From Escherichia coli (GTDB lineage: Bacteria > Pseudomonadota > Gammaproteobacteria > Enterobacterales > Enterobacteriaceae): 64,000 bases of DNA. A model generated the notes under the pieces. The model was not told the DNA's origin and did no database searches. It saw only the letters and a list, made by a program, of their open reading frames with translations. Location: assembly GCA_902500055.1 (NCBI GenBank), contig GCA_902500055.1_4131.1; one strand, 5' to 3'. A program made the position numbers and the translations under genes. Below are positions 16,205-64,000 of this stretch, piece by piece; position 1 is the stretch's first letter; each line of letters starts with the position of its first letter.

Positions 16205-16509
16205 AATAATTCAACCACTCCATCTCTAAAGTACATATAACTACCACCATTGGATACTGTGAATTCTATTGTCCCCAATAATATATTATATTTTTTTATT
16301 TCACATGTAGTACTTGTAGTGTAAGGCTCACCATCTCCTAAGTACATTGACATATGACATAGAACTTTTCTACCAGCATATTTCTCTTCAAACGATTGTT
16401 CAAAACTATGCATAATTTGATTTAAAGCTGAAATGTAATTAATAAAGTCAGGTATTTCTGTCAATGAATTATAAACCGTACAAAGTGAATCAAATTCATT
16501 TTTAGTCAT
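16201..16509 (-). CDS. hypothetical protein
   Basis: 102 aa; no famA core. Confidence 0.5.
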   Translation of the reverse strand: MTKNEFDSLCTVYNSLTEIPDFINYISALNQIMHSFEQSFEEKYAGRKVLCHMSMYLGDGEPYTTSTTCEIKKYNILLGTIEFTVSNGGSYMYFRDGVVELL

Positions 16510-16823
16510 TATATTTCTATCTCAATGTAATCCTGTGTGATTAAGTAATTCCAATGATACTTCACCTGCTTTTGTAATTCAATTAACGTAAAGAAGTTGA
16601 TCGATTTATCCCACACGAGCGATTCCTGGAAAATAAATGATTCATGTTCATCGTAATAATCACACTCTAAAAAATCAGGTATATATTCACTATCGTGAAT
16701 GTATTCAACAAATGAACTAGCTTGGCATTTCTTTACTACTAGTAATAATGAATTATCATGATCAAACAGATACAATAAACTAATTTCACCAGGGACGTAC
16801 TGAACACTGAATAAGTTTTTCAT
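16509..16823 (-). CDS. famA paralog, hypothetical protein
   Basis: 104 aa; core ESFIFQESLVW. Confidence 0.6.
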   Translation of the reverse strand: MKNLFSVQYVPGEISLLYLFDHDNSLLLVVKKCQASSFVEYIHDSEYIPDFLECDYYDEHESFIFQESLVWDKSINFFTLIELQKQVKYHWNYLITQDYIEIEI

Positions 16824-17272
16824 TCTATACCTTCTGGATCTTTACGAAGTTCTTCGAAATCCAAATAAAATCGAGGACAGTTAACACTCTTTAAGTACCA
16901 CATAATAACTAATGCTTCAAGTACTTCATCATCGTAAACAGTACTGTTTTGGAAGTAATACTCTTCACTATCCCACGGACCTTCCAGTACTTCATAATTC
17001 AAAATTAATGGTTTTTTGCGATTAATAAAACGAATGCTACCATTTTCAACATAACTAATAAATTCTGCATCTCTATTGTATTCAGAAAACGATATAGGAC
17101 TATTGGAATTCAACCCAAGAATAACCCTTACACCAACGGAGTTATTATACATTTCATCCTTGTAGTAGTTGCCGTTCTCGGCTTTGTACACTTCTTTGAA
17201 CTTTCCTGCCTTTATATCGTCAAAGTATCCATGTAGTTCTTTTGCTTTTTCAAGAGCACTTTGTAATGACAT
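16820..17272 (-). CDS. famA subfamily A1 paralog
   Basis: 150 aa; N-term MSLQSALEKAK; core SEEYYFQNSTVY; tail VIMWYLK. Confidence 0.65.
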   Translation of the reverse strand: MSLQSALEKAKELHGYFDDIKAGKFKEVYKAENGNYYKDEMYNNSVGVRVILGLNSNSPISFSEYNRDAEFISYVENGSIRFINRKKPLILNYEVLEGPWDSEEYYFQNSTVYDDEVLEALVIMWYLKSVNCPRFYLDFEELRKDPEGIE

Positions 17273-17738
17273 TACCTTCTCCTACAGTATTCTCTACATA
17301 TTCATAATCAAAATAGAAACTACTGGAGTCAATACTTTTGAAATACCACATAATTACAATAACATCCAGTTCTTCTTCATTGTACAACGTACTATTCTGG
17401 AAGTAATACTCTTCACTATCCCACGGACCTTCTAGTACTGAATAAGGAATGATAGTGTCATCAGCATCACTATCTGTGTTGTAGATGGTAATATCTTCAT
17501 TACGGCAATAACTAATGTACTGATTGTACATATGATATTCACAGTTATCACTGTCACCAGTATCAGTGTGCAGTACTAATGTTTCTGCACATACCTCTGA
17601 TTCGTCATAATCATCTCTATCCTTAACGAAGAATTCCGTATCTGATGTTTTGTATACACCTGGTACTGAACCTTCCTGTACCATAATCATGTACTCATGA
17701 ATTTTCTTTGCTTCTTTCAATGCACTTTGTAATGACAT
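17250..17738 (-). CDS. famA subfamily A1 paralog
   Basis: 162 aa; MSLQSALKEAK; core SEEYYFQNSTLY. Confidence 0.65.
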   Translation of the reverse strand: MSLQSALKEAKKIHEYMIMVQEGSVPGVYKTSDTEFFVKDRDDYDESEVCAETLVLHTDTGDSDNCEYHMYNQYISYCRNEDITIYNTDSDADDTIIPYSVLEGPWDSEEYYFQNSTLYNEEELDVIVIMWYFKSIDSSSFYFDYEYVENTVGEGNVITKCS

Positions 17739-17740
17739 TA

Positions 17741-18181
17741 TTATTCCCCTGAAATTAAATACTCACATGATCCCCAGTCAAGAAAGAATGGTTCAAAATT
17801 CAATTCCTTAAAGTACCACAACACAACCAAGGAATCAAGCATTTCTTGGTTAAAAATGAGACTCTGTTGGAAGTAATACTCTTCAGTACCCCACGGGCCA
17901 TCAAGTACTCCGAAGTCAACAGGTGTATTTGATGTGTCAAAAGTAATCTTAGTACCAGGAATATATACCATAAAACTAGTATATTGACTACATGAAGAGT
18001 ACTGTATATTATTGTCTTTATCATGACCCATAAGTAAAATATCATTAGAGTATCTCTTTACTCCAGTGAGGTAATATTCATTCCCATATGCATGTACTTT
18101 ATCAGCATAGAACCCACTTTTTATTTTATCATGGTACTGATGTATTTTGTTGGCTAGTTCTAGTGCTTTTTCTAAACTCAT
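17741..18181 (-). CDS. famA subfamily A1 paralog
   Basis: 146 aa; MSLEKALELANK; core TEEYYFQQSLIF. Confidence 0.65.
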   Translation of the reverse strand: MSLEKALELANKIHQYHDKIKSGFYADKVHAYGNEYYLTGVKRYSNDILLMGHDKDNNIQYSSCSQYTSFMVYIPGTKITFDTSNTPVDFGVLDGPWGTEEYYFQQSLIFNQEMLDSLVVLWYFKELNFEPFFLDWGSCEYLISGE

Positions 18182-18648
18182 ATATCCTCTTTAAGTACTC
18201 TTAGTAGATCCAAGTCTATGTAGAAGCTACTATAATCCGTGTTATGAAAGTACCACGAAATAACAAGTTTGTCAAGTATATCTTCATTATATATAGTACT
18301 CTGCTGGAAATAGTAATCTTCACTACCCCAGTTATTATCCAGTACTGAATACGGAAGATATACCTCTGGTGCACCTGTTTGAATTAATGAATCTTGGATT
18401 AAAATATCAGCATCACGGCAGAAGTACATGTAATTATCTTCCAAATTAACATCACATCCTGTGAGTACTATGTCAGAATCATCTAAGTTTTCTTCATACA
18501 TATGGATATATTCACTACTGTCATCGTATATCATTCGACAATATGATTTACCTTCCTTGAATAGATATCCATTGAGACAATTTGATACAATTTCTTTGCT
18601 GCATAAATCAATTAACTTCGCAATCTCTAATGCTCTTTCTAAACTCAT
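18178..18648 (-). CDS. famA subfamily A1 paralog
   Basis: 156 aa; MSLERALEIAK; core SEDYYFQQSTIY. Confidence 0.65.
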   Translation of the reverse strand: MSLERALEIAKLIDLCSKEIVSNCLNGYLFKEGKSYCRMIYDDSSEYIHMYEENLDDSDIVLTGCDVNLEDNYMYFCRDADILIQDSLIQTGAPEVYLPYSVLDNNWGSEDYYFQQSTIYNEDILDKLVISWYFHNTDYSSFYIDLDLLRVLKEDI

Positions 18649-18649
18649 T

Positions 18650-19144
18650 TCAACCCCTGTTAATACCGTTATCTACAGTTTTCGTTACGTATCTGTAATC
18701 GAAATAGAAGTTCCCAGAACCAATACTTTTAAAGTACCACATAATAACTAATACTTCAAGTACTTCATCATCGTAAACAGTACTTTGTTGGAAGTAATAC
18801 TCTTCACTATCCCACTGACCTTCTAGTACTTCACTCGGAATTATAATGTCATCGGAATCGCAGTCAGTACTGTATATGGTAATATCTGCATCATTAATAT
18901 AGACCATGTACTCATTATGCATATCAATGAAACATTCATAATCATTAGGGTCGGTATCTAGTATGCACGTTTCTGTATCCAGTACGCACGTTTCTGTATC
19001 TGAGCAGTCATTATAAAGGAGGTTATCTGGCACATAATATTGAGTACTTGTGTCTTTGAAAACACCGTAAACTGAACCTTCTTTTGCCATATTCATGTAC
19101 TCATGAATCTTCTTTGCTTTTTCCAATGAACTCTGTAATGTCAT
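18650..19144 (-). CDS. famA subfamily A1 paralog
   Basis: 164 aa; MTLQSSLEKAK; core SEEYYFQQSTVY; internal tandem duplication TETCVLDTETCILDT. Confidence 0.65.
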   Translation of the reverse strand: MTLQSSLEKAKKIHEYMNMAKEGSVYGVFKDTSTQYYVPDNLLYNDCSDTETCVLDTETCILDTDPNDYECFIDMHNEYMVYINDADITIYSTDCDSDDIIIPSEVLEGQWDSEEYYFQQSTVYDDEVLEVLVIMWYFKSIGSGNFYFDYRYVTKTVDNGINRG

Positions 19145-33496: not shown

Positions 33497-33753
33497 TAGT
33501 TCTTTTCCTTTCTTTCTATTTGTTTCATAAGAACATTGATATACTCACCCGCAAACCTATTCTGATACTGCGTCCCCATGAATTCCAACATCCATACTTC
33601 AGCAACCTTTTCTTCAATTTCAGTCCATTGTAAGTACATCATAGTGAAGTAAATGGTGTTCTCTTTTTTTCTGGCACTCTTAGCACGGGCCTCGTATTCA
33701 AAGTTATTAATGATGTTCATTACATTTGTCCATAATGTAATTCTTGAGTGCAA
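33496..33753 (-). CDS. famB paralog
   Basis: 85 aa (start probably internal Met); core FMGTQYQNRFAGEYI. Confidence 0.55.
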   Translation of the reverse strand: MHSRITLWTNVMNIINNFEYEARAKSARKKENTIYFTMMYLQWTEIEEKVAEVWMLEFMGTQYQNRFAGEYINVLMKQIERKEKN

Positions 33754-35485: not shown

Positions 35486-35887
35486 TTACAGCCCTAAGAT
35501 AGTACGTGCTTCGTTACGTTCCTTAGTTTGCTGCATGATGTAAGCTAACTGGTCCTTGCTAATGTATCCCTTGTCCATAGCTTCACGGATAGATACATCA
35601 TAAGCACCGAACCCCGTGCGAACGATACGCACATCATTCAGGTTAGTGTTATAGATACCGCCGAGATCAACGGATTCGAATACTGCATCAACTGTATATT
35701 CGTTGTTACCGTCATTGAAGTTTTCAATCTCAATGTTACGGGACACGGCCCAACGTTTACAGCTTCCAATGATGCGGCAATATTCAGGGTGCATATGACC
35801 ATTACTTACAGCGTGTTCAAGGCCAGCTTTACCAAAAGTCCGGGCCAGTACTAAAACGTCAGCGAAGGAATTGATTGAGAAGGTCAT
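35486..35887 (-). CDS. hypothetical protein
   Basis: Track ORF trimmed to Met12 (MTFSINSF...), which follows AAGGAG; the longer ORF reads through the leader hairpin. Confidence 0.55.
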   Translation of the reverse strand: MTFSINSFADVLVLARTFGKAGLEHAVSNGHMHPEYCRIIGSCKRWAVSRNIEIENFNDGNNEYTVDAVFESVDLGGIYNTNLNDVRIVRTGFGAYDVSIREAMDKGYISKDQLAYIMQQTKERNEARTILGL

Positions 35888-36363: not shown

Positions 36364-36391
36364 TTATTGCAGTACTGATATACTTTGTCAA
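36364..36391 (-). promoter_or_regulatory. conserved early-type promoter
   Basis: Minus sense TTGACA-17 nt (contains CAGTACTG)-AATAAT. Confidence 0.45.
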
Positions 36392-36461
36392 TACTTTTTT
36401 TATTAATAGTTTTCACTCCACCAGCAGATAGTTACTCACCGTTATTAACTATATATTTTGG

Positions 36462-36540
36462 ATACACTTATGCACCCTGTGGGCTAGTTTTTGTCTATGC
36501 GTATATAATAGCAAAGGGACTGACCGGAGTCAATCCCTTT
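36462..36540 (+). repeat. conserved intergenic unit, copy 1
   Basis: ATACACTTATGCACCCTGTGGGCTAG ... hairpin AAAGGGACTGACCGGAGTCAATCCCTTT plus T-run; also at 39212, 42222, 45607. Confidence 0.6.
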
Positions 36541-36555
36541 TTTTATTCTTTTTTG

Positions 36556-36756
36556 TTAGATGATTCTCCAATCATCAACGATCATGGTAAGATACCGAAC
36601 CAGTGATTCGAGTGATTCGTGTTCTCGATAGTCTGCCGCACCGCCAGCGGTACAAGTACAGCCGATTAAGCCGTTTTGCAATTCCTTAATCTGTACATCG
36701 ATAAGGTTGGCTTTAGCTTCTTTCAGTACTTCAACCAGGGCGATAGCGATAGACAT
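36556..36756 (-). CDS. hypothetical protein
   Basis: 66 aa. Confidence 0.5.
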   Translation of the reverse strand: MSIAIALVEVLKEAKANLIDVQIKELQNGLIGCTCTAGGAADYREHESLESLVRYLTMIVDDWRII

Positions 36757-36839: not shown

Positions 36840-36846
36840 ATAGTTT

Positions 36847-39083: not shown

Positions 39084-39211
39084 GATTTTATTCCTTAATA
39101 TACCAGGGAGAACCATTTCCCCCTCTCGATATAAAACATTATACTTGATTCTAAGTACAATGCAAGTACTTTTTAAAAAATAGTTTTCAGTACTGAATAC
39201 TTATATAATAG

Positions 39212-39295
39212 ATACACTTCCGCACCCTATGGGTCAGTGAGTTATCTCTCAATGGATATATAATAGCAAAGGGACTGACCGGAGTCAATCCCTTT
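39212..39295 (+). repeat. conserved intergenic unit, copy 2
   Basis: GATACACTTCCGCACCCTATGGGTCAG ... AAAGGGACTGACCGGAGTCAATCCCTTTTTT. Confidence 0.6.
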
Positions 39296-39306
39296 TTTAA
39301 TCTTTT

Positions 39307-39891
39307 TTATCGTGTTACCTTACTTGCTGCCACATCACGCTTTTTATAGTACTGATTCCAGATATTGCAGGTTAAACCGTAATCAAGTACTTTAATAAGG
39401 CCATTACGATCCTGGCCGATATTCTGTTTTCTGATATCTCTTATCGTTAGTGTTGATAATGTATCATCGACGTGTTGTAGTGCATCAGCAAAGCGGTGCT
39501 GGCGTTCGATTGCATTACGTTTAATATTGTACTTTAATTCATTGCACGCGTTTACGTGCTTCACACTACCTTTGCTTGCAGTACTCAACCGATCCATAAC
39601 GATAAACATATTATCAGGATCGCATAAATGCATATGCACCTTTGCAAAGTACTGTTTCAACTGAGGGCGGTCATAGTCTAAAAAATTCCATACCTTACAT
39701 TCAGTTTCATTTTGTTCTACACCCGCATCACAATTCGCGACCTTAATCACTAACCGATCATTTAAAGCGAAAACTATACGGGAAGAACCAGCACCGATGA
39801 TCTCCAGGCCAGCTAACCGACAAGCTGAAAGGATCTCTTTGTTGGTTTCCATTTCTGACAGTGTACGGATGAATTTAGTATAATTACGCAT
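39307..39891 (-). CDS. Hanks-type (eukaryotic-like) Ser/Thr protein kinase-like protein
   Basis: Trimmed to Met20 after AAGGAG; Gly loop IGAGSSRIVF, Lys in VIKV, catalytic-loop-like RDIRKQN, DYG in place of DFG. Confidence 0.55.
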   Translation of the reverse strand: MRNYTKFIRTLSEMETNKEILSACRLAGLEIIGAGSSRIVFALNDRLVIKVANCDAGVEQNETECKVWNFLDYDRPQLKQYFAKVHMHLCDPDNMFIVMDRLSTASKGSVKHVNACNELKYNIKRNAIERQHRFADALQHVDDTLSTLTIRDIRKQNIGQDRNGLIKVLDYGLTCNIWNQYYKKRDVAASKVTR

Positions 39892-39922
39892 TGCATGTTC
39901 TCCTTGAGTTAATGAAACTATA

Positions 39923-40165
39923 TTACAGTACTTTACTATCAATGGCAACTACTTTTTTAACATTAACGGCGTGGATCACTTCCTTCGTGTTTTTAGTACT
40001 GAATACTTTCGCCGCTCCTTGTTCGACCGTGATACGATAGCGACCATTAACATCAACCATATTAATAAAGTCCGGCGTGCTGAATGGTGTTGTTTTACAT
40101 TTGAGTACTGTTAACAGTTCCACCAGCGATGTAGTTTCTTTGATACGTTTTTCTAAAGTAATCAT
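39923..40165 (-). CDS. hypothetical protein
   Basis: Track ORF trimmed to Met20 (MITLEKRIK...). Confidence 0.5.
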   Translation of the reverse strand: MITLEKRIKETTSLVELLTVLKCKTTPFSTPDFINMVDVNGRYRITVEQGAAKVFSTKNTKEVIHAVNVKKVVAIDSKVL

Positions 40166-42008: not shown

Positions 42009-42150
42009 GGTTGATGTAAGTATTATACTCGTTTACTTTCTATTGTCAAACTATTTTATCAGGGGAGTTTTTCGTATGTCTTACTCCTGGACTACTTAAC
42101 GGGGTTACTTGTTTCGTTCCCCGTCCTGATGTAAAACATTATACTTGATT
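42009..42150 (-). repeat. duplicated ~140-bp leader cassette, copy 1
   Basis: Near-identical to 52141..52282; contains two tandem promoters and hairpins CGGGGAACG..CCCCG and GGAGTAAG..CTCC. Confidence 0.55.
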
Positions 42151-42221
42151 CTAAGTACAATGCAAGTACTTTTTAAAAATAGTTTTCAGTACTTGATAGT
42201 ACTAGCCACCAGCAAACAATA

Positions 42222-42301
42222 GATACATTTATGCACCCGGTGGGCTAATTTGTTTCTATGCGTATATAATAGCAAAGGGACTGACCGGAGTCAATCCCTT
42301 T
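42222..42301 (+). repeat. conserved intergenic unit, copy 3
   Basis: GATACATTTATGCACCCGGTGGGCTAA ... AAAGGGACTGACCGGAGTCAATCCCTTTTT. Confidence 0.6.
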
Positions 42302-43963: not shown

Positions 43964-44164
43964 TATTTTAACCTCATTATAAAAATACTATAGTACTGTA
44001 ATGCGACAATAATATTACTTGTTCTTACTTTTTCCAATCCACATGATACCACATATTCATTACCATATGTGCGGAACGATACACCATGAAAATTTTTATA
44101 CACTTGCACTACTAATCATAACCTTTCGTCTAACCAACTGCATAGAATTATACTACTTTACGCA

Positions 44165-44205
44165 AATTGATCAAGTATTGATCAGATCATTTTTGATCAA
44201 TATTA
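44165..44205 (-). promoter_or_regulatory. cluster of TTGATCA palindromes (4 GATC sites in ~40 bp) in a leader
   Basis: AAATTGATCAAGTATTGATCAGATCATTTTTGATCAATATT. Confidence 0.4.
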
Positions 44206-44293
44206 TACAGTTACATTTGTGCACCCTATGGGTTAGTGACGTTCTCGTCTTGATGTAAGTATTATGCCAGTACTGGATGATATTGTCAATAGA

Positions 44294-45483: not shown

Positions 45484-45606
45484 GATTTGTTTCCTTATTA
45501 CCAGGGGAAACCGTTTCCCCTTTCGATGTAAAACATTATACGCTTATTGAGATAGTTTGCAAGTACTTTTTAAAAATAGTTTTCAGTACTCAATACTTAT
45601 ATAATA

Positions 45607-45692
45607 GATACACTTATGCACCCGGTGGGCTAGTGAGCTATCTCTCAATGAATATATAATAGCAAAATGGCTGACCGAAGTCAACCACTTTT
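45607..45692 (+). repeat. conserved intergenic unit, copy 4 (degenerate hairpin)
   Basis: GATACACTTATGCACCCGGTGGGCTAGTGAG ... AAAATGGCTGACCGAAGTCAACCACTTTTTT. Confidence 0.55.
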
Positions 45693-49202: not shown

Positions 49203-49408
49203 TTTATAAATCCTCAATTAAAGTTTAGTTTACGTTTATTAGTGTATCAAAGTTTTCTCGACGTGTCCAGTTTTTCGTTCGACTTACTGGCGGTCTACTT
49301 AGTGCTCCCCGTCTTGATGTAATACATTCTACGCTTTTCTGCGGTAATGTCAACTACTTTCTTAAAACTATTTTCAAAGTATCTCAGTACTACGATACTA
49401 CAAAAACA

Positions 49409-50418: not shown

Positions 50419-50447
50419 TTGACAAGTGCATCCAGTACTGGCATAAT
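50419..50447 (+). promoter_or_regulatory. plus-strand sigma70-like promoter, divergent from early genes
   Basis: TTGACA-17 nt (CCAGTACTG)-CATAAT on the plus strand. Confidence 0.45.
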
Positions 50448-50448
50448 T

Positions 50449-50562
50449 ACTACATCAAGACGAAACAGTCACTAACCCACCGGGTGCCGAGATCCGTCTA
50501 TTAAATGATTCAGTACTGAAAAAGTAACGGGGAGTTATTATCTCCCCGCGTTGTTATTTTGT
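50449..50562 (+). ncRNA. candidate short plus-strand transcript
   Basis: Runs from the promoter at 50419 to hairpin CGGGGAGTTATTATCTCCCCG plus T-rich tract; contains CCCACCGGGTGC box; no ORF. Confidence 0.25.
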
Positions 50563-52140: not shown

Positions 52141-52282
52141 GTTGATGTAAGTATTATACGCTTTTACTTTCTATTGTCAAACTATTTTATCAGGGGAGTT
52201 TTTCGTGTGCCTTACTCCTGGGCTACTTAACGGGAAGTTACTTATTTCGTTCCCCGTCCTGATGTAAAACATTATACGCCTT
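52141..52282 (-). repeat. duplicated ~140-bp leader cassette, copy 2
   Basis: Near-identical to 42009..42150. Confidence 0.55.
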
Positions 52283-52344: not shown

Positions 52345-52373
52345 TTGACAGCATTATCAAGTACTGGCATAAT
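52345..52373 (+). promoter_or_regulatory. plus-strand sigma70-like promoter
   Basis: TTGACA-17 nt-CATAAT, followed by CCCACCGGGTGC box. Confidence 0.4.
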
Positions 52374-52547
52374 ATACCCCATGACAACAGCTAACCCACC
52401 GGGTGCACAATTGTAACTATACTAAACTAATTTTTCTATAGATACACTCCCGCACCCTATGGGCTACGGCTTATCTGCCAATGAATACATTATGCCAGTA
52501 CTGACAAAATAAGTCAATACCGGCAATTGTAAAGATTTGTAAACTGC

Positions 52548-54277: not shown

Positions 54278-54305
54278 TTGACTTGATCCTGAAAAAGCGT
54301 ATAAT
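54278..54305 (+). promoter_or_regulatory. plus-strand sigma70-like promoter
   Basis: TTGACT-16 nt-TATAAT. Confidence 0.4.
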
Positions 54306-54493
54306 TACTACATAGACGCGAGAAAGCGGAAACCCCAGGGGGTGCGGAATTACGCCCAAAATTCAAGATATAAAAAAAGGATACACTCCCGCACCCTAGC
54401 AGGCAAACGCACTTTCTCAGTACTGAAATATAGTACCATAGTCCGGCCCAGGATAGCAAGCAAATTAATTAAAATTTTTTTGCTTCCAGGGTA

Positions 54494-54521
54494 TTGCTTT
54501 ATTTTTTCAGTACTGTATAAT
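54494..54521 (+). promoter_or_regulatory. plus-strand sigma70-like promoter
   Basis: TTGCTT-16 nt (CAGTACTG)-TATAAT; downstream sequence paralogous to that after 54305. Confidence 0.4.
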
Positions 54522-54743
54522 AGTTCCATCAAGTCGAGAAAGACTCAAGCCCACCGGGTGCATAGTTACGCCCAAAATTCAGTACTGAAAAAATTTTTAA
54601 AAATATCCGTCCAGGCCGTTGACATTGCCCCCAGTTTATAAGATAATGATTCCAGATTCAGAAAAATCTAACTCCAGATACTGCGGGGAAACTATCCCCA
54701 CGCGGTAGGGGAACTATTGGAAAAAACAAAATAAAATTTTGAT

Positions 54744-54870
54744 TTAGCCGTCTATACTTCCAGACGTGTAACCATCTAGCCGTTTAGCCGTCCAAACGTC
54801 TAGCCATCCAGCCATCCAGAAATCTAGCCGTTTAGCCGTCTAGATGGATAGCCATCTTTACTTCCAGACT
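54744..54870 (+). repeat. iteron-like short direct repeats
   Basis: At least 8 copies of TAGCC(G/A)T within ~110 bp, flanked by CTTCCAGAC x2. Confidence 0.5.
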
Positions 54871-55925
54871 TCTGGAGGGCTAGACATATCTACGTCCAAA
54901 ATCCACCCAGGGTAACTACACCCAAAATCCGTCAGTACTATACCATAGATCTATCTTTTGAAAGGGAGTATTCAGTACTGCCATCATAGCCCTCACTATG
55001 TTACCCTAGGAGGATGAAGACCATCATGTAGTACTGAATACTGTTAGAGGGAATCCACCAGCTTGTGCTGGTGGCATAATGCATTAAATTAAAATCAGTA
55101 CTGACACCATTCTGTTAATATCAGTACTGTTTATATTACGAAAAAAGAGGTTATAAAAAGATGTACCACCCATAGGAGGAACTATCCTTTCAGTACTGTC
55201 TCACGACAGGAGGTAGAGTGAATGAATTGTTTGCGGCAACTCATCTCTCTATGTAGAACATTATACAGTACTGAATCATAATGTCAATAGCTTTCTTTCA
55301 TTATTCAGTACTGATATTCTTGAGAACTACCCGACTACAAACATCATTATATCCCACAAATCATAAACGTCCCAACGTAAATTTCAACTTTCGAAGATCC
55401 AACTTTTATTTCATAGGTACTCCAAAATTTTTAGGATCGAGATTTAGGATGGAGTACTAACCAACTTTTTGCTGGAGCCTCAAGGGGTAATGGAATTTTA
55501 CCCCGAAGGGTAAAAGGGTAATTGTAATTAAGGTGAAAGTAATAATTCAGTACTAATCATTGTGTGATTACTTTTGATTACATTTGATGTAATTTGCAAA
55601 ATGGAAAAGGAGCTTGGAAACTACAAAGTACGGCAGACTTCCTCTGCCTACTTAGTGGGATATCAGTACTGAATCATTCACACACATTTCCGTGCATTCT
55701 TGAGCAATCTTGTCTATACTAATCAGTACTGAATCATATATAATCATTCTGTGATTCTACGGTGCTCATATAAATGTTTATATATGATTACTTATGACTA
55801 CCTATGATTACGGGGTTTAGCCTGGGGAGAATCCTAGTGATCGCATTTGTCCAGGCTGAATTTTAACAATTCGCCTGTACATAAAGGTTGTTCACTAGGA
55901 GCTTCCCCTGTCTCTATGTGTTTAA

Positions 55926-60296: not shown

Positions 60297-60398
60297 GTGT
60301 AGTTCTCCTTGTATTCCTTCTATAGTACACCAGTACTGAAAGGATGTCAAGGGTTTTGTTTATGGGGTAAATATGATATAATGAATAAAGGAGGAAAT

Positions 60399-61304
60399 AT
60401 GTTACCTTTTGTTAGAATGTTTGATTATGGGAATGAAGCTCCATTACCAGCCCCAAATGGTGGTATACGAACTCAATTTACCACATCACCAGTACCTTCA
60501 GCACGAAATAACTTTGGTTATACGTATGATGCATCAAGAAATACTGCTTATATATTTGGTGGTATAATGAATACTTCGAACCAGGATAATCAGTTATGGA
60601 GTTTTAATTTAAATTCTAGAATATGGGTACAATTATCATCACCACCAGTATCCACCTATGGAAGTGCATTGTGTGCCTATCAAGGAAAAATATATTTGTT
60701 CGGTGGTTTAGGTGCAGCGAATGTTGCTAATAATAATTTTTATGTATATGACATAAGCTCTGATACATGGACACTGAATAATACAAGTGTTGGCAAACCT
60801 AACCAGGCAGTATATAGTAAGATGATTACTACAGGGGATAAGATATATTTGTGGGGTTCACCGTCTAATACTGCATTATATAGTTATACGCCGAGTACTA
60901 ATACATGGGCATCGTTAGGTACTACTGGGAATACAACAAACAATGGTGGTGGTGATATGTGCACTGATGGTACTTACATATATTTTACAGGACAAGGATC
61001 TACTCCTGCACAAAAATATCACATAGAGAGTGCGGTTTGGTCAAGAATGGCAGCAGTTGGTGGAGCTAACCCTAGTAAGATAATTTACAATAGATATGAC
61101 AAAGGTATATATGCAGTATCTTATGGTGCATTAAATTTATTAAAATATGATGCCGAGCAAAACAAATGGATACCATTAGCTATCAATACAACGTTGAGTA
61201 ATAGTACTGGTGCATTATTTGGCTCTAATAATAGTGCTGAAATATTTTACGTACTTGGTTACGACAACGGGACACGTGTTAATACGCAGTATGTTTTTAA
61301 ATAA
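60399..61304 (+). CDS. famD: Kelch-like beta-propeller protein with conserved MLPFVRMFDYGNEAP N-terminus
   Basis: Start set at ATG after AAAGGAGG; Kelch-like periodicity AYIFGG...LWSF, KIYLFGGLG...DTWT, KIYLWG...NTWA. Confidence 0.6.
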   Translation: MLPFVRMFDYGNEAPLPAPNGGIRTQFTTSPVPSARNNFGYTYDASRNTAYIFGGIMNTSNQDNQLWSFNLNSRIWVQLSSPPVSTYGSALCAYQGKIYLFGGLGAANVANNNFYVYDISSDTWTLNNTSVGKPNQAVYSKMITTGDKIYLWGSPSNTALYSYTPSTNTWASLGTTGNTTNNGGGDMCTDGTYIYFTGQGSTPAQKYHIESAVWSRMAAVGGANPSKIIYNRYDKGIYAVSYGALNLLKYDAEQNKWIPLAINTTLSNSTGALFGSNNSAEIFYVLGYDNGTRVNTQYVFK

Positions 61305-61316
61305 TTTGGAGGAAAT

Positions 61317-62466
61317 ATGTTACCTTTTGTAAGAATGTTTGATTATGGGAATGAAGCACCTACCAACTCTGGGCGTTTTAAAATATATTCCAGTGATTCT
61401 ATGTATCTTCATGATACTTATACTGATAAGTTGTATGCATCTTCTGCGACGAATTGGGGTACTGGTACAGGTGTAGCATCGAGTAAATTTATTCTTTGTG
61501 CGGAGAATGTTAAACGAGTTCTATTGGAAGATAACAGTAGTGATTGTCAATTGTATGAAGAGAAAGGTACTGGAAAAGTTTTTATCACTGGTAACACGAA
61601 GGCATTCACTGGTGTAACTGATAGAAAAACTTTGTGGACGGACTGTACTACGTGGATAACATCAAGTGGTATTAATGTTTCTGATATAAAATACATGAGT
61701 AGTTTTTATGATATGAAGGTGAATTTGATAACAAACGATGGTACATTGTATTGTTGTGGAACTAACAATATATCGAACATATCATCATTTGGTGATGGCA
61801 CAAACATTAATTCTTTTAACACATTCAAAAGAGTAGATACTATAACTTCGGTTAAAAAGGCAGTTGGTAACATTTATTTGCGAGAAGATAATACTTTATG
61901 GGGTTGTGGTTTTAACTATTACTACCAGTTGGGTACTGGTAATCAAACTTCGATTACTGGGGTGACGATGATTTCTTCGGATGTTATAGATTTTGATGTA
62001 AGTTATCAGAGTACATTTTTTTATCAAATCGGATAATAATTTGTACGCATGTGGGAAGCAGTACGGAGCACAATATGGTAATGAATTTGGCACAGGTGGA
62101 ACATCTACTAGTACTGATATTCAATACAAGACTCCTACATTATTGAGTACAGGGGTATATGGTGTATATGCATGTGTTGCTAACATGGCATCACATATTG
62201 TCAAAGCAGATGAAGTTCTATATGCTTCTGGATCGAATGGGTTTGGGCAATTAGGTGTTGGTAATAATAATAATCAGTACTCCTATACTCCTTCATATAC
62301 TTCGTTTAATACTTCGTGTAATTTGGTACGCACTCCATCTGGTTCACTTATACTTACTGACACTTCGAAGTTATATTATTCGGGTGCTTCATTTGTAGTA
62401 ATGGGTGGTAGTGCTGGACAGAACGTTCTTAATTATACCGAAGTCGATATGTCATTTGTGCAGTAA
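61317..62466 (+). pseudogene. famD: RCC1-like repeat protein split by a frameshift in a T7 run
   Basis: ORFs 61317..62036 and 62041..62466 both carry RCC1-like repeats (LYCCGTNN, LWGCGFNYYYQLGTGN; LYACGKQYG, LYASGSNGFGQLGVGN); a 1-nt shift in TTTTTTT at 62016-62022 joins them. Confidence 0.5.
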
Positions 62467-62475
62467 ATTAATATA

Positions 62476-62500
62476 CCAGTACTTGATACTGGCTTTTTTT
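62476..62500 (+). terminator. intrinsic terminator
   Basis: Hairpin CCAGTA-CTTGA-TACTGG followed by TTTTTTT. Confidence 0.6.
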
Positions 62501-62534
62501 GATTAAATATAGTATAATGAATAAAGGAGGAAAT

Positions 62535-63644
62535 ATGTTACCTTTTGTAAGAATGGTTAAGTACGGGAATATTGCACCAGTACCGAAAAAAATAAAGAAA
62601 GTTATAGCAGGATATGATAATTTATATGTACTATATGGTGATGGTTCGCTATATGGTTGTGGAATCAATAACTATCAACAGTTAAATATTGATGGAACTG
62701 CTACACAAAATAATTGGGTACTAATTACCAATGGTGTTAGTAATGCATGGGCTGGTGGATACAATATTTTATATTTGAAAGAAGATAAATTTATAATGCA
62801 CGGAACTAATGTCTCATTAGGTTTAGGAAATACTACAATTCCATTAGGTGGAGTAGATGTAACTTCTTCATTCCCAGATATCTCTAATATTAAAATGATA
62901 TCCATTGGTTTTGATTCAATGCACTATGTTAGTGCTGATGGTACAACTGTATATGGAAGAGGTATGAACACAAATGGTTCTGTTGGTTCAGGTAGTACTT
63001 ACTCACAGAGTACTTTCACTTCAGTACTGAATAATGGAACTAATCAGGTTATTGATATATTTGGTAACGTTAATAATACAGTGCTTCTAACATCGAATGG
63101 TGAGCTTCGAGCATGTGGGACAAGTGCTTATGGTTCTATAGGAAATGAAACTGGTAAGTGGACATCGTTTGGTTTAAAATTATCTGGCACTAAAATAATG
63201 GGTGGTAATGGGTATAGTACGCTTGCATATACAAATTCGGGAATGTACCACTCAGGGTGGCAGTTAAATGGGGAACTAGGAAATGGTTTAGATACTAACG
63301 TACAGGTATATCCATTTCAATTTAACTCTAAAACGATAGATAGCAAGATAGATAAAATTGCCAAATCATCATCTGGGTCATATGTTAACATGTACTCAAC
63401 AACAGAAGGAAAGATATATACGACAGGTTCGTTTGGTAAAAACGGGTCAACTACTGCATTGAATTTGTTCACCAATACATTAACACTTATAAATTACAAT
63501 CCAGATACCGCCTCGTTGTATACGTGCACAAACTTCAGTGTTGTGTATGATGGTAATGAAACTATTGCTGTAAGTGGTAGTCCTACATATGTACCAGGGG
63601 GCGTTGCCGCTAATAGATGGACTACAATTCCATTACCCAAGTAA
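62535..63644 (+). CDS. famD: RCC1-like repeat beta-propeller protein with MLPFVRMVKYGN N-terminus
   Basis: Start at ATG after AAAGGAGG; repeats LYGCGINNYQQLNIDG, VYGRGMNTNGSVGSG, LRACGTSAYGSIGNE, MYHSGWQLNGELGNG. Confidence 0.6.
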   Translation: MLPFVRMVKYGNIAPVPKKIKKVIAGYDNLYVLYGDGSLYGCGINNYQQLNIDGTATQNNWVLITNGVSNAWAGGYNILYLKEDKFIMHGTNVSLGLGNTTIPLGGVDVTSSFPDISNIKMISIGFDSMHYVSADGTTVYGRGMNTNGSVGSGSTYSQSTFTSVLNNGTNQVIDIFGNVNNTVLLTSNGELRACGTSAYGSIGNETGKWTSFGLKLSGTKIMGGNGYSTLAYTNSGMYHSGWQLNGELGNGLDTNVQVYPFQFNSKTIDSKIDKIAKSSSGSYVNMYSTTEGKIYTTGSFGKNGSTTALNLFTNTLTLINYNPDTASLYTCTNFSVVYDGNETIAVSGSPTYVPGGVAANRWTTIPLPK

Positions 63645-63651
63645 TACTATG

Positions 63652-63676
63652 CCAGTACTTGATACTGGCTTTTTTT
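63652..63676 (+). terminator. intrinsic terminator
   Basis: Same hairpin CCAGTACTTGATACTGG plus T-run as at 62476. Confidence 0.6.
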
Positions 63677-63711
63677 GATTAAATATAGTATAATGAATAA
63701 AGGAGGGAATT

Positions 63712-64000
63712 ATGTTACCTTTTGTTAGAATGTTTGATTATGGGAATATAATCGAAGTTAATAATATAAAGAAAAGTGTTGTTAGTTACACTCTTGAAAT
63801 GTTTCTAATGCAAGATGGCACTGTATATGCACACGGTGAAGATTCAAACTATAATGCGGGTTTAAGTACAAAGTTTGTATCGTTAGGAGCAGTTCAACAA
63901 ATCACAACTGAAGTTGATGACTTATGGTTAGGATCGTTTTCCGTTGTTATTAAAGGTGATAAAATATATGGTTCAGGTTCAACATATGCATTCACGAATT
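63712..64000 (+). CDS. famD: RCC1-like repeat protein, 3' end beyond window
   Basis: Starts MLPFVRMFDYGNIIEV after the conserved cassette (here AAGGAGGG); VYAHGEDSNYNAGL, IYGSGS; open to window end. Confidence 0.5.
   Translation, partial: MLPFVRMFDYGNIIEVNNIKKSVVSYTLEMFLMQDGTVYAHGEDSNYNAGLSTKFVSLGAVQQITTEVDDLWLGSFSVVIKGDKIYGSGSTYAFTN

Follow-up and report, generated by a model that had tools for sequence, protein, structure and literature searches.

The repeat units described here are best read as composite early-transcription cassettes that would launch a short module RNA from the terminal repeat of a jumbo phage, a reading to which we assign a probability of about 0.6. Each of the four units found in the window, i.e. 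the whole 64,000-nucleotide stretch of DNA that was analysed, appears to consist of a terminator hairpin, a promoter and a transcribed module. All the evidence from the sequence agrees that the units are to be read on the minus strand, which is the strand of the surrounding genes. The anatomy of the units, their conservation, their strandedness and their covariation could be read from the sequence and its comparison with related phages.

The window resembles Asteriusvirus jumbo phages of E. coli (121Q, PBECO4, G17, UE-S1 and others), which are about 350 kb in size, with a mosaic identity of up to 97%. By homology with phages vB_Ec-M-J and G17, the region from about 35.06 to 56.6 kb is the direct terminal repeat (DTR) of an Asteriusvirus-type jumbo phage. 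In vB_Ec-M-J the DTR spans 1-21525, with a homologue of copy 2 at 17276-17386, and in G17 the homology is to the start of the record. According to the ORF list the terminal repeat is crowded with small minus-strand ORFs, and nearly every one of them is preceded by a sigma70-type promoter and a 5'-UTR hairpin (repeat families D1-D8); nine promoters that match at 12 of 12 positions are found between 36 and 46.5 kb. A comparable early region, with RpoD-like promoters and UP-like elements, has been predicted in the related phage CBB (PMC5259590).

All four copies of the ~85-bp unit named in the original prediction (36462-36540, 39212-39295, 42222-42301 and 45607-45692) are present and align over their full length. 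Their pairwise identity is 78-93%, and a profile made from the four finds them again at E = 1e-28 to 1e-31. Three exact occurrences of the 28-nt hairpin AAAGGGACTGACCGGAGTCAATCCCTTT (copies 1-3) were counted, against none expected from 100 shuffles, and the hairpin of copy 4 deviates by G.U or compensated changes, with pairing kept on the minus strand only and A.C mismatches on the plus strand. Copies 1 and 3 represent a short form without 5 nt of H1, the 5' hairpin of the module. When searched with a covariance model the promoter-distal half of the unit, i.e. the module, is found in ten copies in the window and not just in four. Coordinates are collected in Table 1.

Table 1. Coordinates of copy 2 and its surroundings, of the other three original units, and of further module copies in the window. 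Functional names denote predicted features.
Feature	Position	Strand	Details
Upstream ORF of copy 2	39307..39948	-	stop codon 39307-39309; ORF list; homologous CDS annotated in UE-S1 and G17
A-rich tract between stop codon and hairpin, copy 2	39296..39306	-	T-run on the plus strand; from sequence
Terminator hairpin, copy 2	39268..39295	-	12 unbroken pairs including one U.G; C-G-closed UCCG loop; tail GCUAUUAU
P1 -35 hexamer TTGACT, copy 2	39283..39288	-	within the hairpin: inner stem and first loop base
P1 TG-extended -10 TGcTATTAT, copy 2	39260..39268	-	17-bp spacer; TG is the end of the terminator U-tract
Predicted transcription start, copy 2	39253	-	A of CAT, 7 nt past the -10; from spacing
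Module, copy 2	39202..39257	-	covariance-model match, 60.0 bits, E 2e-20
Module H1, copy 2	39238-39251	-	UGAG-AGAUAA-CUCA; linker next
Invariant core CCCAUAGGGUGC, copy 2	39222-39233	-	followed by the H3 stem-loop, then CUAU
Palindrome TTCAGTACTGAA	39186..39197	.	3' of the copy 2 module; from sequence
Second early promoter P2, canonical	39138..39165	-	TTGCAT-16-TATAAT with AAAAAGTAC upstream; repeat families D1/D3
5'-UTR hairpin GGGGGAAAUGGUUCUCCC of the downstream gene	39102..39126	-	repeat families D6/D7
Downstream ORF behind P1 and P2	38862..39083	-	ORF list; start taken from the G17 homologue
Copy 1	36452..36540	-	hairpin 36513-36540, -35 36528-36533, -10 36505-36510
Short-form module, copy 1	36452-36496	-	core 36472-36483; upstream stop at 36556
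Copy 3	42213..42301	-	hairpin 42274-42301, -35 42289-42294, -10 42266-42271
Short-form module, copy 3	42213-42263	-	core 42233-42244; upstream 49-aa ORF, stop 42313
Copy 4	45598..45691	-	hairpin 45664-45691 (UUCG loop, extra G.U pairs), -35 45679-45684, -10 45656-45661
Module, copy 4	45598-45653	-	core 45618-45629; upstream 44-aa ORF, stop 45698
Module copy with plain promoter, no hairpin	44201..44289	-	TTGACA-17-CATAAT
Stand-alone copy	50419..50561	+	promoter 50419-50447, module 50452-50507, intrinsic terminator 50528-50548 and U-rich tail
Module copy, opposite strand	52345..52426	+	convergent with 52432-52517
Module copy	52432..52517	-	promoter TTGACT-17-CATAAT; convergent with 52345..52426
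Module copy, opposite strand	54278..54365	+	promoter 54278-54305; degenerate inverted copy next
Module copy, opposite strand	54494..54581	+	promoter 54494-54521; further promoter next

The hairpin had been placed directly after minus-strand genes, and in 4/4 copies it indeed starts 6-15 nt past the upstream stop codon. A GC-containing stem-loop followed by a U-rich tract is thus present 3' of a gene in all four copies. ARNold terminator annotations coincide with these hairpins in G17 (copies 1-2) and UE-S1 (copy 2), and the GAP32 record annotates the homologous hairpin as a stem-loop. Since four of the five minus-strand terminator-like sites between 36 and 46.5 kb are these units, they would close gene blocks of about 3 kb. 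The hairpin had also been taken for a textbook plus-strand terminator, which was not supported, since the plus-strand stem has C.A/A.C mismatches and folds more weakly in copies 2 and 4. For copy 2 the hairpin reaches -19.5 kcal/mol (z -6.1) on the minus strand vs -13.4 on the plus strand, and for copy 4 the values are -15.9 (z -4.3) and -6.4 (z -1.5), respectively. The twelve minus-strand pairs are unbroken because the plus-strand C.A mismatch becomes U.G, and on the minus strand only the loop is a UNCG tetraloop (UCCG or UUCG) closed by C-G. The tail on this strand reads UUU or UUUU and then G; in copies 1-3 the U-tract is short and weak (UUUGCUAUUAU, with just UUU before GC), which counts against termination.

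The strongest argument for a terminator is the comparison across 77 distinct copies, taken from the window and from phages GAP32, CBB, Serratia BF, K64-1, Munch, fHe-Yen9-03 and Hallingskeid. A hairpin is present in 43 of them, namely in 40/51 copies that are co-directional with the genes and in 0/26 copies with the opposite orientation (p = 4e-12). The sense strand is the stabler one in 41/43 hairpins, with a mean of -14.9 vs -9.5 kcal/mol for the antisense strand. Altogether the hairpins hold 64 G.U pairs and exhibit 16 different outer arms, in which the pair types change in a compensatory way. The pattern TTGAC-N4-G is matched by 33 promoters, and 22 of these have UUCG, UCCG or UACG as their loop. 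In all likelihood, as far as can be judged from these sequences, transcripts of the upstream gene block end at the C(UNCG)G hairpin with its U3-4 and G. The element had been proposed to be a bidirectional terminator and a promoter in one. The terminator and the promoter were both upheld, and the bidirectional part is without sign of selection; termination in both directions is possible for copies 1-3, which have the A-tract on one side and T6 on the other.

The predicted minus-strand promoter TTGACT-17-TATTAT was recovered in 4/4 copies, each with a TG before the -10 and an A-tract upstream. In our own reading this A-tract, which precedes the hairpin, resembles the UP proximal subsite (AAAAAARNR upstream of the -35). 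The hairpin extends over both the -35 and the spacer, and therefore its descending stem and the U-tract make up the spacer, while the last TG extends the -10. A sigma70-like promoter precedes the module in 77/77 copies, and in 71 of them it scores 9/12 or more when compared with the sigma70 consensus. In 56/77 copies the spacer measures 17 bp, the -35 reads TTGACA in 33 copies and TTGACT in another 29, and 47 have TG in front of the -10. Copies devoid of the hairpin have an ordinary promoter with the same geometry. The seventh base past the -10 is the A of a conserved CAT in 9/10 window copies.

In the hairpin-type copies of other genera TTGAC is unchanged and the outer stem covaries, and the idea of a compact terminator and promoter holds because of this invariance across genera. 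The -35, the stem, the U-tract and the -10 share the same DNA, and therefore the hairpin would insulate the promoter from upstream read-through. It is very probable from the sequence that the hairpin DNA serves as a strong sigma70 promoter that is shielded from read-through and restarts transcription about 7 nt past the -10. Cassettes of hairpin and promoter also exist without the module (L005 12799 and 11786, L003 17749, L004 17830), and the module is therefore separable and conserved on its own.

The shared sequence given in the original prediction, GATACACTT..GCACCC..TGGG, is the reverse complement of the module, which begins at the predicted transcription start. The module would correspond to an RNA of about 55 nt that starts roughly 7 nt past the -10. 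Its parts follow in a fixed order: H1 (a variable 5' hairpin with a purine-rich loop), a 4-nt linker YUAR, the core, the stem-loop H3, CUAU and an A/U-rich sequence. The core is the invariant 12-mer CCCAYAGGGUGC, in which RCCC-N3/4-GGGU makes up the mini-hairpin H2, and H3 abuts the core and uses its GUGC. The core follows the -10 at a fixed distance of 25-29 nt, which shrinks to 21-22 nt in short-form copies without H1. An H1 of 4 bp or more is found in 55/77 copies; shuffles give 18.8, and 27 at most. The stems take 34 different forms, and GCGAAA, GAGAAA, AGAACAA and AGAUAA are among the loops.

A covariance model was built from 24 copies and searched against 338 kb of jumbo-phage DNA with a cut-off of E below 0.01. 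The search yielded 105 module copies, of which exactly 10 are in the window (6 on the minus and 4 on the plus strand). In the covariance-model alignment 90.6% of the cells are paired vs 75.8% in shuffles (0/500 reach it), a count for which the alignment was itself fitted to the covariance model. Double-change cells number 148 vs 50.5 expected and 4/4 H1 pairs covary, in a set where many copies come from close relatives (GAP32/CBB; BF/Yen9-03) and hence are not independent. The base before CCC, opposite the invariant U, gives 59 A-U and 38 G.U pairs, and H3 positions change only as U-A/U.G and G.U/G-C. This one-sided variation of H3 fits a sense-strand RNA, with which it would be compatible without being proof. 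H2 does not vary and H3 varies one-sidedly, and their pairs are thus no more than compatible with the structure. Folds of single module sequences are not unusually stable (z -0.1 to -2.2), and with a plain MAFFT alignment RNAalifold recovered the invariant CCC/GGG pairs alone, because H1 was misaligned. Taken together, the comparative data make it likely that the module is a functional sense-strand RNA element.

Some further structures and roles were tried for the module and rejected. A closing helix from the RNA 5' end to the sequence after H3 (a cloverleaf) gives 4.08 with the own pairing vs 4.24 with permuted copies. A pseudoknot between the H1 loop AGAUAA and a downstream UAUCU would apply to the AGAUAA copies only; UAUCU is kept also with GCGAAA loops, and no covariation was seen by eye. 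A RegB-type GGAG target is not supported, with GGA at that place in about half of the copies only, and a coding module is contradicted by the lack of AUG in most copies and by length differences of 1 nt and 5 nt between copies. The module also has what we take to be a partial likeness to type I-F CRISPR repeats, and a role as a CRISPR-repeat mimic is unsupported here. The sequence 3' of the module has features of its own: in 29/77 copies AGTACT is found at +30 to +39 relative to the core, there is a massive enrichment of the palindrome CAGTACTG nearby, and a -10-like hexamer follows the module at a fixed offset in a third of the copies.

What follows the module differs between copies. At the four original copies the module has no terminator behind it; 30-70 nt further downstream there is a second canonical early promoter, and then come a 5'-UTR hairpin, the ribosome-binding site and the next gene. 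This second promoter blurs the purpose of P1 in the four original copies and counts against the cassette view. Solo copies in the opposite orientation exhibit a clear intrinsic terminator about 50 nt past the core in at least four lineages, and solo copies with their own promoter, structured body and terminator are found in the window (the stand-alone copy in Table 1), K64-1, Munch, BF and Yen9-03. For the stand-alone copy of the window an RNA of about 100 nt is predicted. The suggestion that the element may define a small RNA is accordingly to be divided: an RNA on the plus strand that ends at the hairpin was not supported, whereas one on the minus strand that starts after the hairpin is predicted. 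Convergent pairs account for 26/77 copies, and RNA reading through them is predicted to fold into long hairpins of -29 to -47 kcal/mol. Such pairs do not follow from the cassette scheme, and count against it.

The whole unit is found at 72-81% identity in jumbo phages of Cronobacter, Pectobacterium, Serratia, Erwinia, Yersinia, Salmonella and Klebsiella, with 3-8 matching places reported per phage record, and the copies found with the covariance model come from four or more phage genera and from several unclassified relatives. When IMG/VR was scanned for exact matches to the core with its flanks, these were found only on contigs of 345-378 kb or on fragments. No match to a host homologue was found in 5,426 complete E. 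coli genomes. The whole window has no Rfam match at gathering thresholds, and between 36.3 and 45.8 kb the sole match with E up to 5 was to an unrelated miRNA model; ARAGORN found no tRNA or tmRNA. The 12-mer core was found in no paper in a relevant context in a literature search, and no description of the element is given in those on RaK2, CBB and phAPEC6. Identity of the module with the highly expressed ncRNA001 or ncRNA002 of the related phage PA5oct was rejected, as both are without the module. PA5oct is a more distant relative, in which the abundant ncRNAs come from the terminal repeat.

The part made up of hairpin and promoter is already of a known kind, whereas the module appears to be undescribed. 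Promoter-early stem-loop (PeSL) cassettes were described in T4-type phages (Arbiol et al. 2010, PMC2839356; Comeau et al. 2014, PMC4122927), and for these both promoter and terminator activity were shown experimentally (PMC2839356), with stem-loops that lie in the -35/-10 interval or overlap either box. The units share with PeSLs a strong sigma70-like early promoter, an AT-rich upstream region and a stable stem-loop for which termination of upstream transcription is, in the units, predicted; here the hairpin covers the -35 and the entire spacer, with -15.9 to -19.5 kcal/mol. Like PeSLs, the units recur among small ORFan genes; a position at the indel breakpoints of related phages, as described for PeSLs, is hinted at here in a few comparisons with phage TH47. 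In contrast to PeSLs, the units belong to Asteriusvirus and other RaK2-like jumbo phages and not to Tevenvirinae, without sequence homology, and their -35 always occupies the loop and the inner stem of a UNCG hairpin. A PeSL leads directly into the Shine-Dalgarno, whereas here the ~55-nt module, usually a second promoter, and a 5'-UTR hairpin precede the ribosome-binding site, and the unit does not span the distance from stop codon to Shine-Dalgarno/ATG. For PeSLs activity and mini-circle formation are part of the description, whereas the promoter and terminator roles are here predicted from sequence.

As in other intrinsic or bidirectional terminators, a stable stem-loop comes right after the stop codon, flanked on its two sides by an A-tract and a T/U-tract, and terminator finders predict the unit. 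It differs from them in that the U-tract is short (UUU/UUUU, then G) and doubles as spacer and extended -10, and in that just one of the strands shows selection (G.U pairs, UNCG loop). C(UUCG)G hairpins were reportedly described in intercistronic regions of T4 in 1988, by Tuerk and coworkers. The extra-stable, C-G-closed UNCG tetraloop in a phage intergenic hairpin is common to both, but in the unit the loop and its closing pairs also spell the -35 hexamer (T-TGAC-U). Phages SPO1 and T5 carry early 'host-takeover' regions in their terminal repeats. There, as in CBB and here, the terminal repeat is full of small early genes, each behind a strong host-type promoter; in contrast, a counterpart of the module is not known from the descriptions of those regions.

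From these data we infer termination, initiation, the 3' end of the RNA and its role as follows. Transcripts of the upstream gene block would stop at the stable UNCG hairpin, the DNA of which would also act as a sigma70 promoter that the hairpin shields from read-through. The first ~55 nt of the new transcript would be the module, which may be an abundant immediate-early small RNA or a leader domain, with the invariant core as a recognition platform for a protein and the 5' hairpin protecting the RNA. Where a terminator follows the module a discrete RNA of about 100 nt would be made, while at the four original copies the module would be the 5' end of a longer leader that runs into the second promoter and the next gene. 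A small RNA or leader is favoured because the module works in either orientation, forms stand-alone genes, is present in many copies with strong promoters and has variable hairpins around an invariant centre. A trans-acting or protein-binding role of the module is at present a tentative suggestion. Equally speculative is a wider proposal, that the module represents an undescribed immediate-early RNA family, made from some ten strong promoters per terminal repeat in every RaK2/121Q/GAP32-like Enterobacterales jumbo phage. Its core might then capture a host or phage protein (as a decoy or sponge) or reprogram the polymerase, and convergent pairs might give rise to long dsRNA hairpins.

The main rival explanation, which we consider unlikely, is that the module acts in cis as a leader signal and changes the RNA polymerase that transcribes it, by processive antitermination or pause control. 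HK022 put, lambda nut, lambda PR'-qut-6S RNA and ops/RfaH are leader RNAs or DNA sites that load antitermination. Polymerases started at P1 would read through the terminators of the next gene block, and those started at P2 would stop. The module resembles such leaders in that in both a short conserved element with small hairpins is found just past an early promoter and some copies with a terminator would yield a short RNA. The position of the module is always near +20 of a strong early promoter, in the sense direction, and two or three small hairpins are part of it. With 12 nt the core has roughly the length of an exposed element of the non-template strand, a third of the copies have the -10-like hexamer at its fixed offset, and the units occur every ~3 kb at gene-block ends where they are themselves the main predicted terminators. 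Lambda PR'-tR' is an arrangement of a promoter and then a terminator, which the solo copies with a terminator resemble. The purine-rich H1 loops (GCGAAA, GAGAAA, AGAACAA) are boxB-like, but they are hexa- or heptaloops; a nut-type site has a boxB hairpin with a GNRA-like purine loop next to boxA. A boxA (CGCUCUUUA-like) sequence was sought as GCTCTT[TA] from -30 to +120 of the core and found in 0/77 copies, and ops (GGCGGTAGnnTG) has one match with one mismatch in the window (55209), away from the modules, vs 0.76 expected. In addition, the unit has no Rfam match, no antiterminator gene or other cognate factor was identified, and the module occurs in both orientations. Read-through from opposite-orientation copies would run antisense to genes, and convergent pairs would make no sense for an antitermination leader.

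A DNA site is a less probable explanation still. Here the 12-mer would act as an operator, a roadblock or a nicking or recognition site for a phage protein just past early promoters. The core is invariant, so that covariation gives no support for its acting as an RNA structure; it is located in the terminal repeat, where functions related to the phage ends are expected, and the enriched palindrome CAGTACTG next to it looks like a protein site. On the other hand, the core is not palindromic and keeps a strict sense orientation to the promoter in 77/77 copies, the flanking H1 covaries, and H2 and H3 use G.U pairs, which are mismatches on the other strand.

It is very improbable that the repeats are mainly recombination substrates (shuffling points like PeSLs) or a recently duplicated spacer with no function past the promoter and terminator. 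The four copies are 78-93% identical, PeSLs have been proposed to act in this way (PMC2839356; PMC4122927), and, in few comparisons, the borders of indels that distinguish the window from TH47 lie at 36553 (the end of copy 1) and in early-promoter cassettes at 36844, 37828, 39105 and 45477. However, the module is kept at 72-81% identity over at least four genera, in a fixed register to the promoter, with an invariant core and compensatory changes in H1, and the existence of module-free cassettes marks the module as separable and separately conserved. The weakest alternative is the plus-strand small RNA of the original prediction, antisense to the unit and ended by the hairpin and T6: copies 1-3 do have a plus-strand hairpin of -13.4 kcal/mol followed by T6, a plus-strand TATAAT lies at 39204-39209 and copy 3 has a weak 9/12 promoter-like site (42193-42220), but the plus-strand hairpin of copy 4 reaches only -6.4 kcal/mol (z -1.5), the sense strand is the stabler one in 41/43 hairpins, G.U pairs and the UNCG loop are exclusive to the minus strand, copies 1, 2 and 4 have no plus-strand promoter that scores 9/12 or more and none is conserved upstream, and the minus-sense promoter is conserved in 77/77 copies, which makes it scarcely credible.

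The composite cassette represents an extreme regulatory compaction, in which one 44-bp stretch apparently holds a UP-like tract, a terminator stem, a -35, a spacer and an extended -10, and it would be a clean natural design for insulating a promoter from upstream read-through. The PeSL idea is thereby extended from T4-type phages to a distant clade of 350-kb phages, and the analysis reveals a well-defined, multi-copy and clade-wide non-coding element (105 copies) at the very start of predicted early transcripts. The phage group is considered for therapeutic use, and if the module is a functional RNA it would provide a direct handle on host takeover in the first minutes of infection.

Two types of sequence recur downstream of the module, a conserved ~55-nt element that follows a sigma70-like promoter and is predicted to be transcribed. 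Among the 77 related module copies compared, drawn from the window and seven jumbo phages, 25 carried a -10-like hexamer (TATAAT, TATAGT or TATTAT) at a fixed offset, 23 nt past the core's CCC. This hexamer may act as a sigma-dependent pause element or may simply reflect A/T-rich sequence. AGTACT, a palindrome with 272 occurrences in the window and a frequency of about one per 179 bp across the related loci, was found 30-39 nt past the module core in 29 of the 77 copies, and also in promoter spacers, immediately upstream of the -10. The palindrome CAGTACTG occurs 65 times in the whole window (0.75 expected) and is most dense at 35-56 kb. This palindromic motif may be the operator of a phage regulator, or may be related to modification. 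Next to one module copy (44201-44256), four GATC/TGATCA sites lie within ~40 nt immediately on its 3' side (~44160-44205).

Convergent module copies, paired with their promoters pointing inward, are an arrangement kept across genera. Read-through RNA from such pairs is predicted to fold into long, imperfect hairpins with energies of -29 to -47 kcal/mol.

Coordinates of repeated features in the window and in two related jumbo-phage loci (L003, L004)
Feature	Location	Coordinates	Strand
-10-like hexamer after module, example	window	39205-39210	minus
CAGTACTG, example	window	39188-39195	
Convergent module pair	window	52345-52517	
Convergent module pairs	L003	~16470-16600, ~35580-35710	
Convergent module pairs	L004	~16545-16680, ~33570-33700, ~36380-36510	
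Second cassette, example	window	39102-39183	
Second non-coding unit	window	42045-42133, 52170-52263	minus
Second non-coding unit, diverged copy	window	~49205-49325	
Chi, eight sites	window	36418-36425, 38220, 40120, 42206, 43106, 44568, 48584, 55055	minus
Chi, three sites	window	48646, 55067, 62751	plus

A second type of early-promoter cassette is present in ~25 copies at 35.9-55.3 kb (repeat families D1-D8), in which a AAAAAGTACTTGCA..TATAAT promoter is followed in order by GTTTTACAT, a 5' hairpin (GGGGAGAAnnnnTTCTCCCC) and a ribosome-binding site. Indel breakpoints between the window and TH47 were located in these promoter cassettes. A second repeated non-coding unit is flanked by early promoters on either side, and its RNA is predicted to form two inner hairpins enclosed by a closing helix (AUCAGG/CCUGAU), with energies of -21.0 and -19.3 kcal/mol for the fold as a whole. 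An Rfam E-value scan gave no match for the copy near 42.1 kb, the sole copy within the scanned range. The unit may represent a second small RNA, or a leader.

Further repeats were observed in the window. The D9/D12 repeat of 145 nt (five copies with ~450 bp spacing, 16853-18924) probably represents tandem paralogous small genes. The ~90-nt D13 unit (four plus-strand copies, 60359-63761), containing a promoter, a ribosome-binding site and a conserved ORF start (MLPFVRMFDYGNE...), is a paralogous gene family. The 8-bp periodic array of family D10 (CGTCTAGC/CATCCAGC-like, 54749-54900) adjoins a strand-switch region near the outer end of the terminal repeat, with a GC skew flip at ~56 kb.

Chi (GCTGGTGG) is also adjacent to module copies in the phages Munch, Hallingskeid and K64-1. 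The window holds 11 Chi sites against 0.41 expected, and 10 of the 11 fall within the terminal repeat. All eight sites on the minus strand are oriented toward RecBCD coming in from the 35-kb end. Two of the three on the plus strand (48646 and 55067) are oriented toward the 56.6-kb end. The enrichment of Chi in the terminal repeat and the facing of both ends suggest that the sites may serve in genome-end protection.
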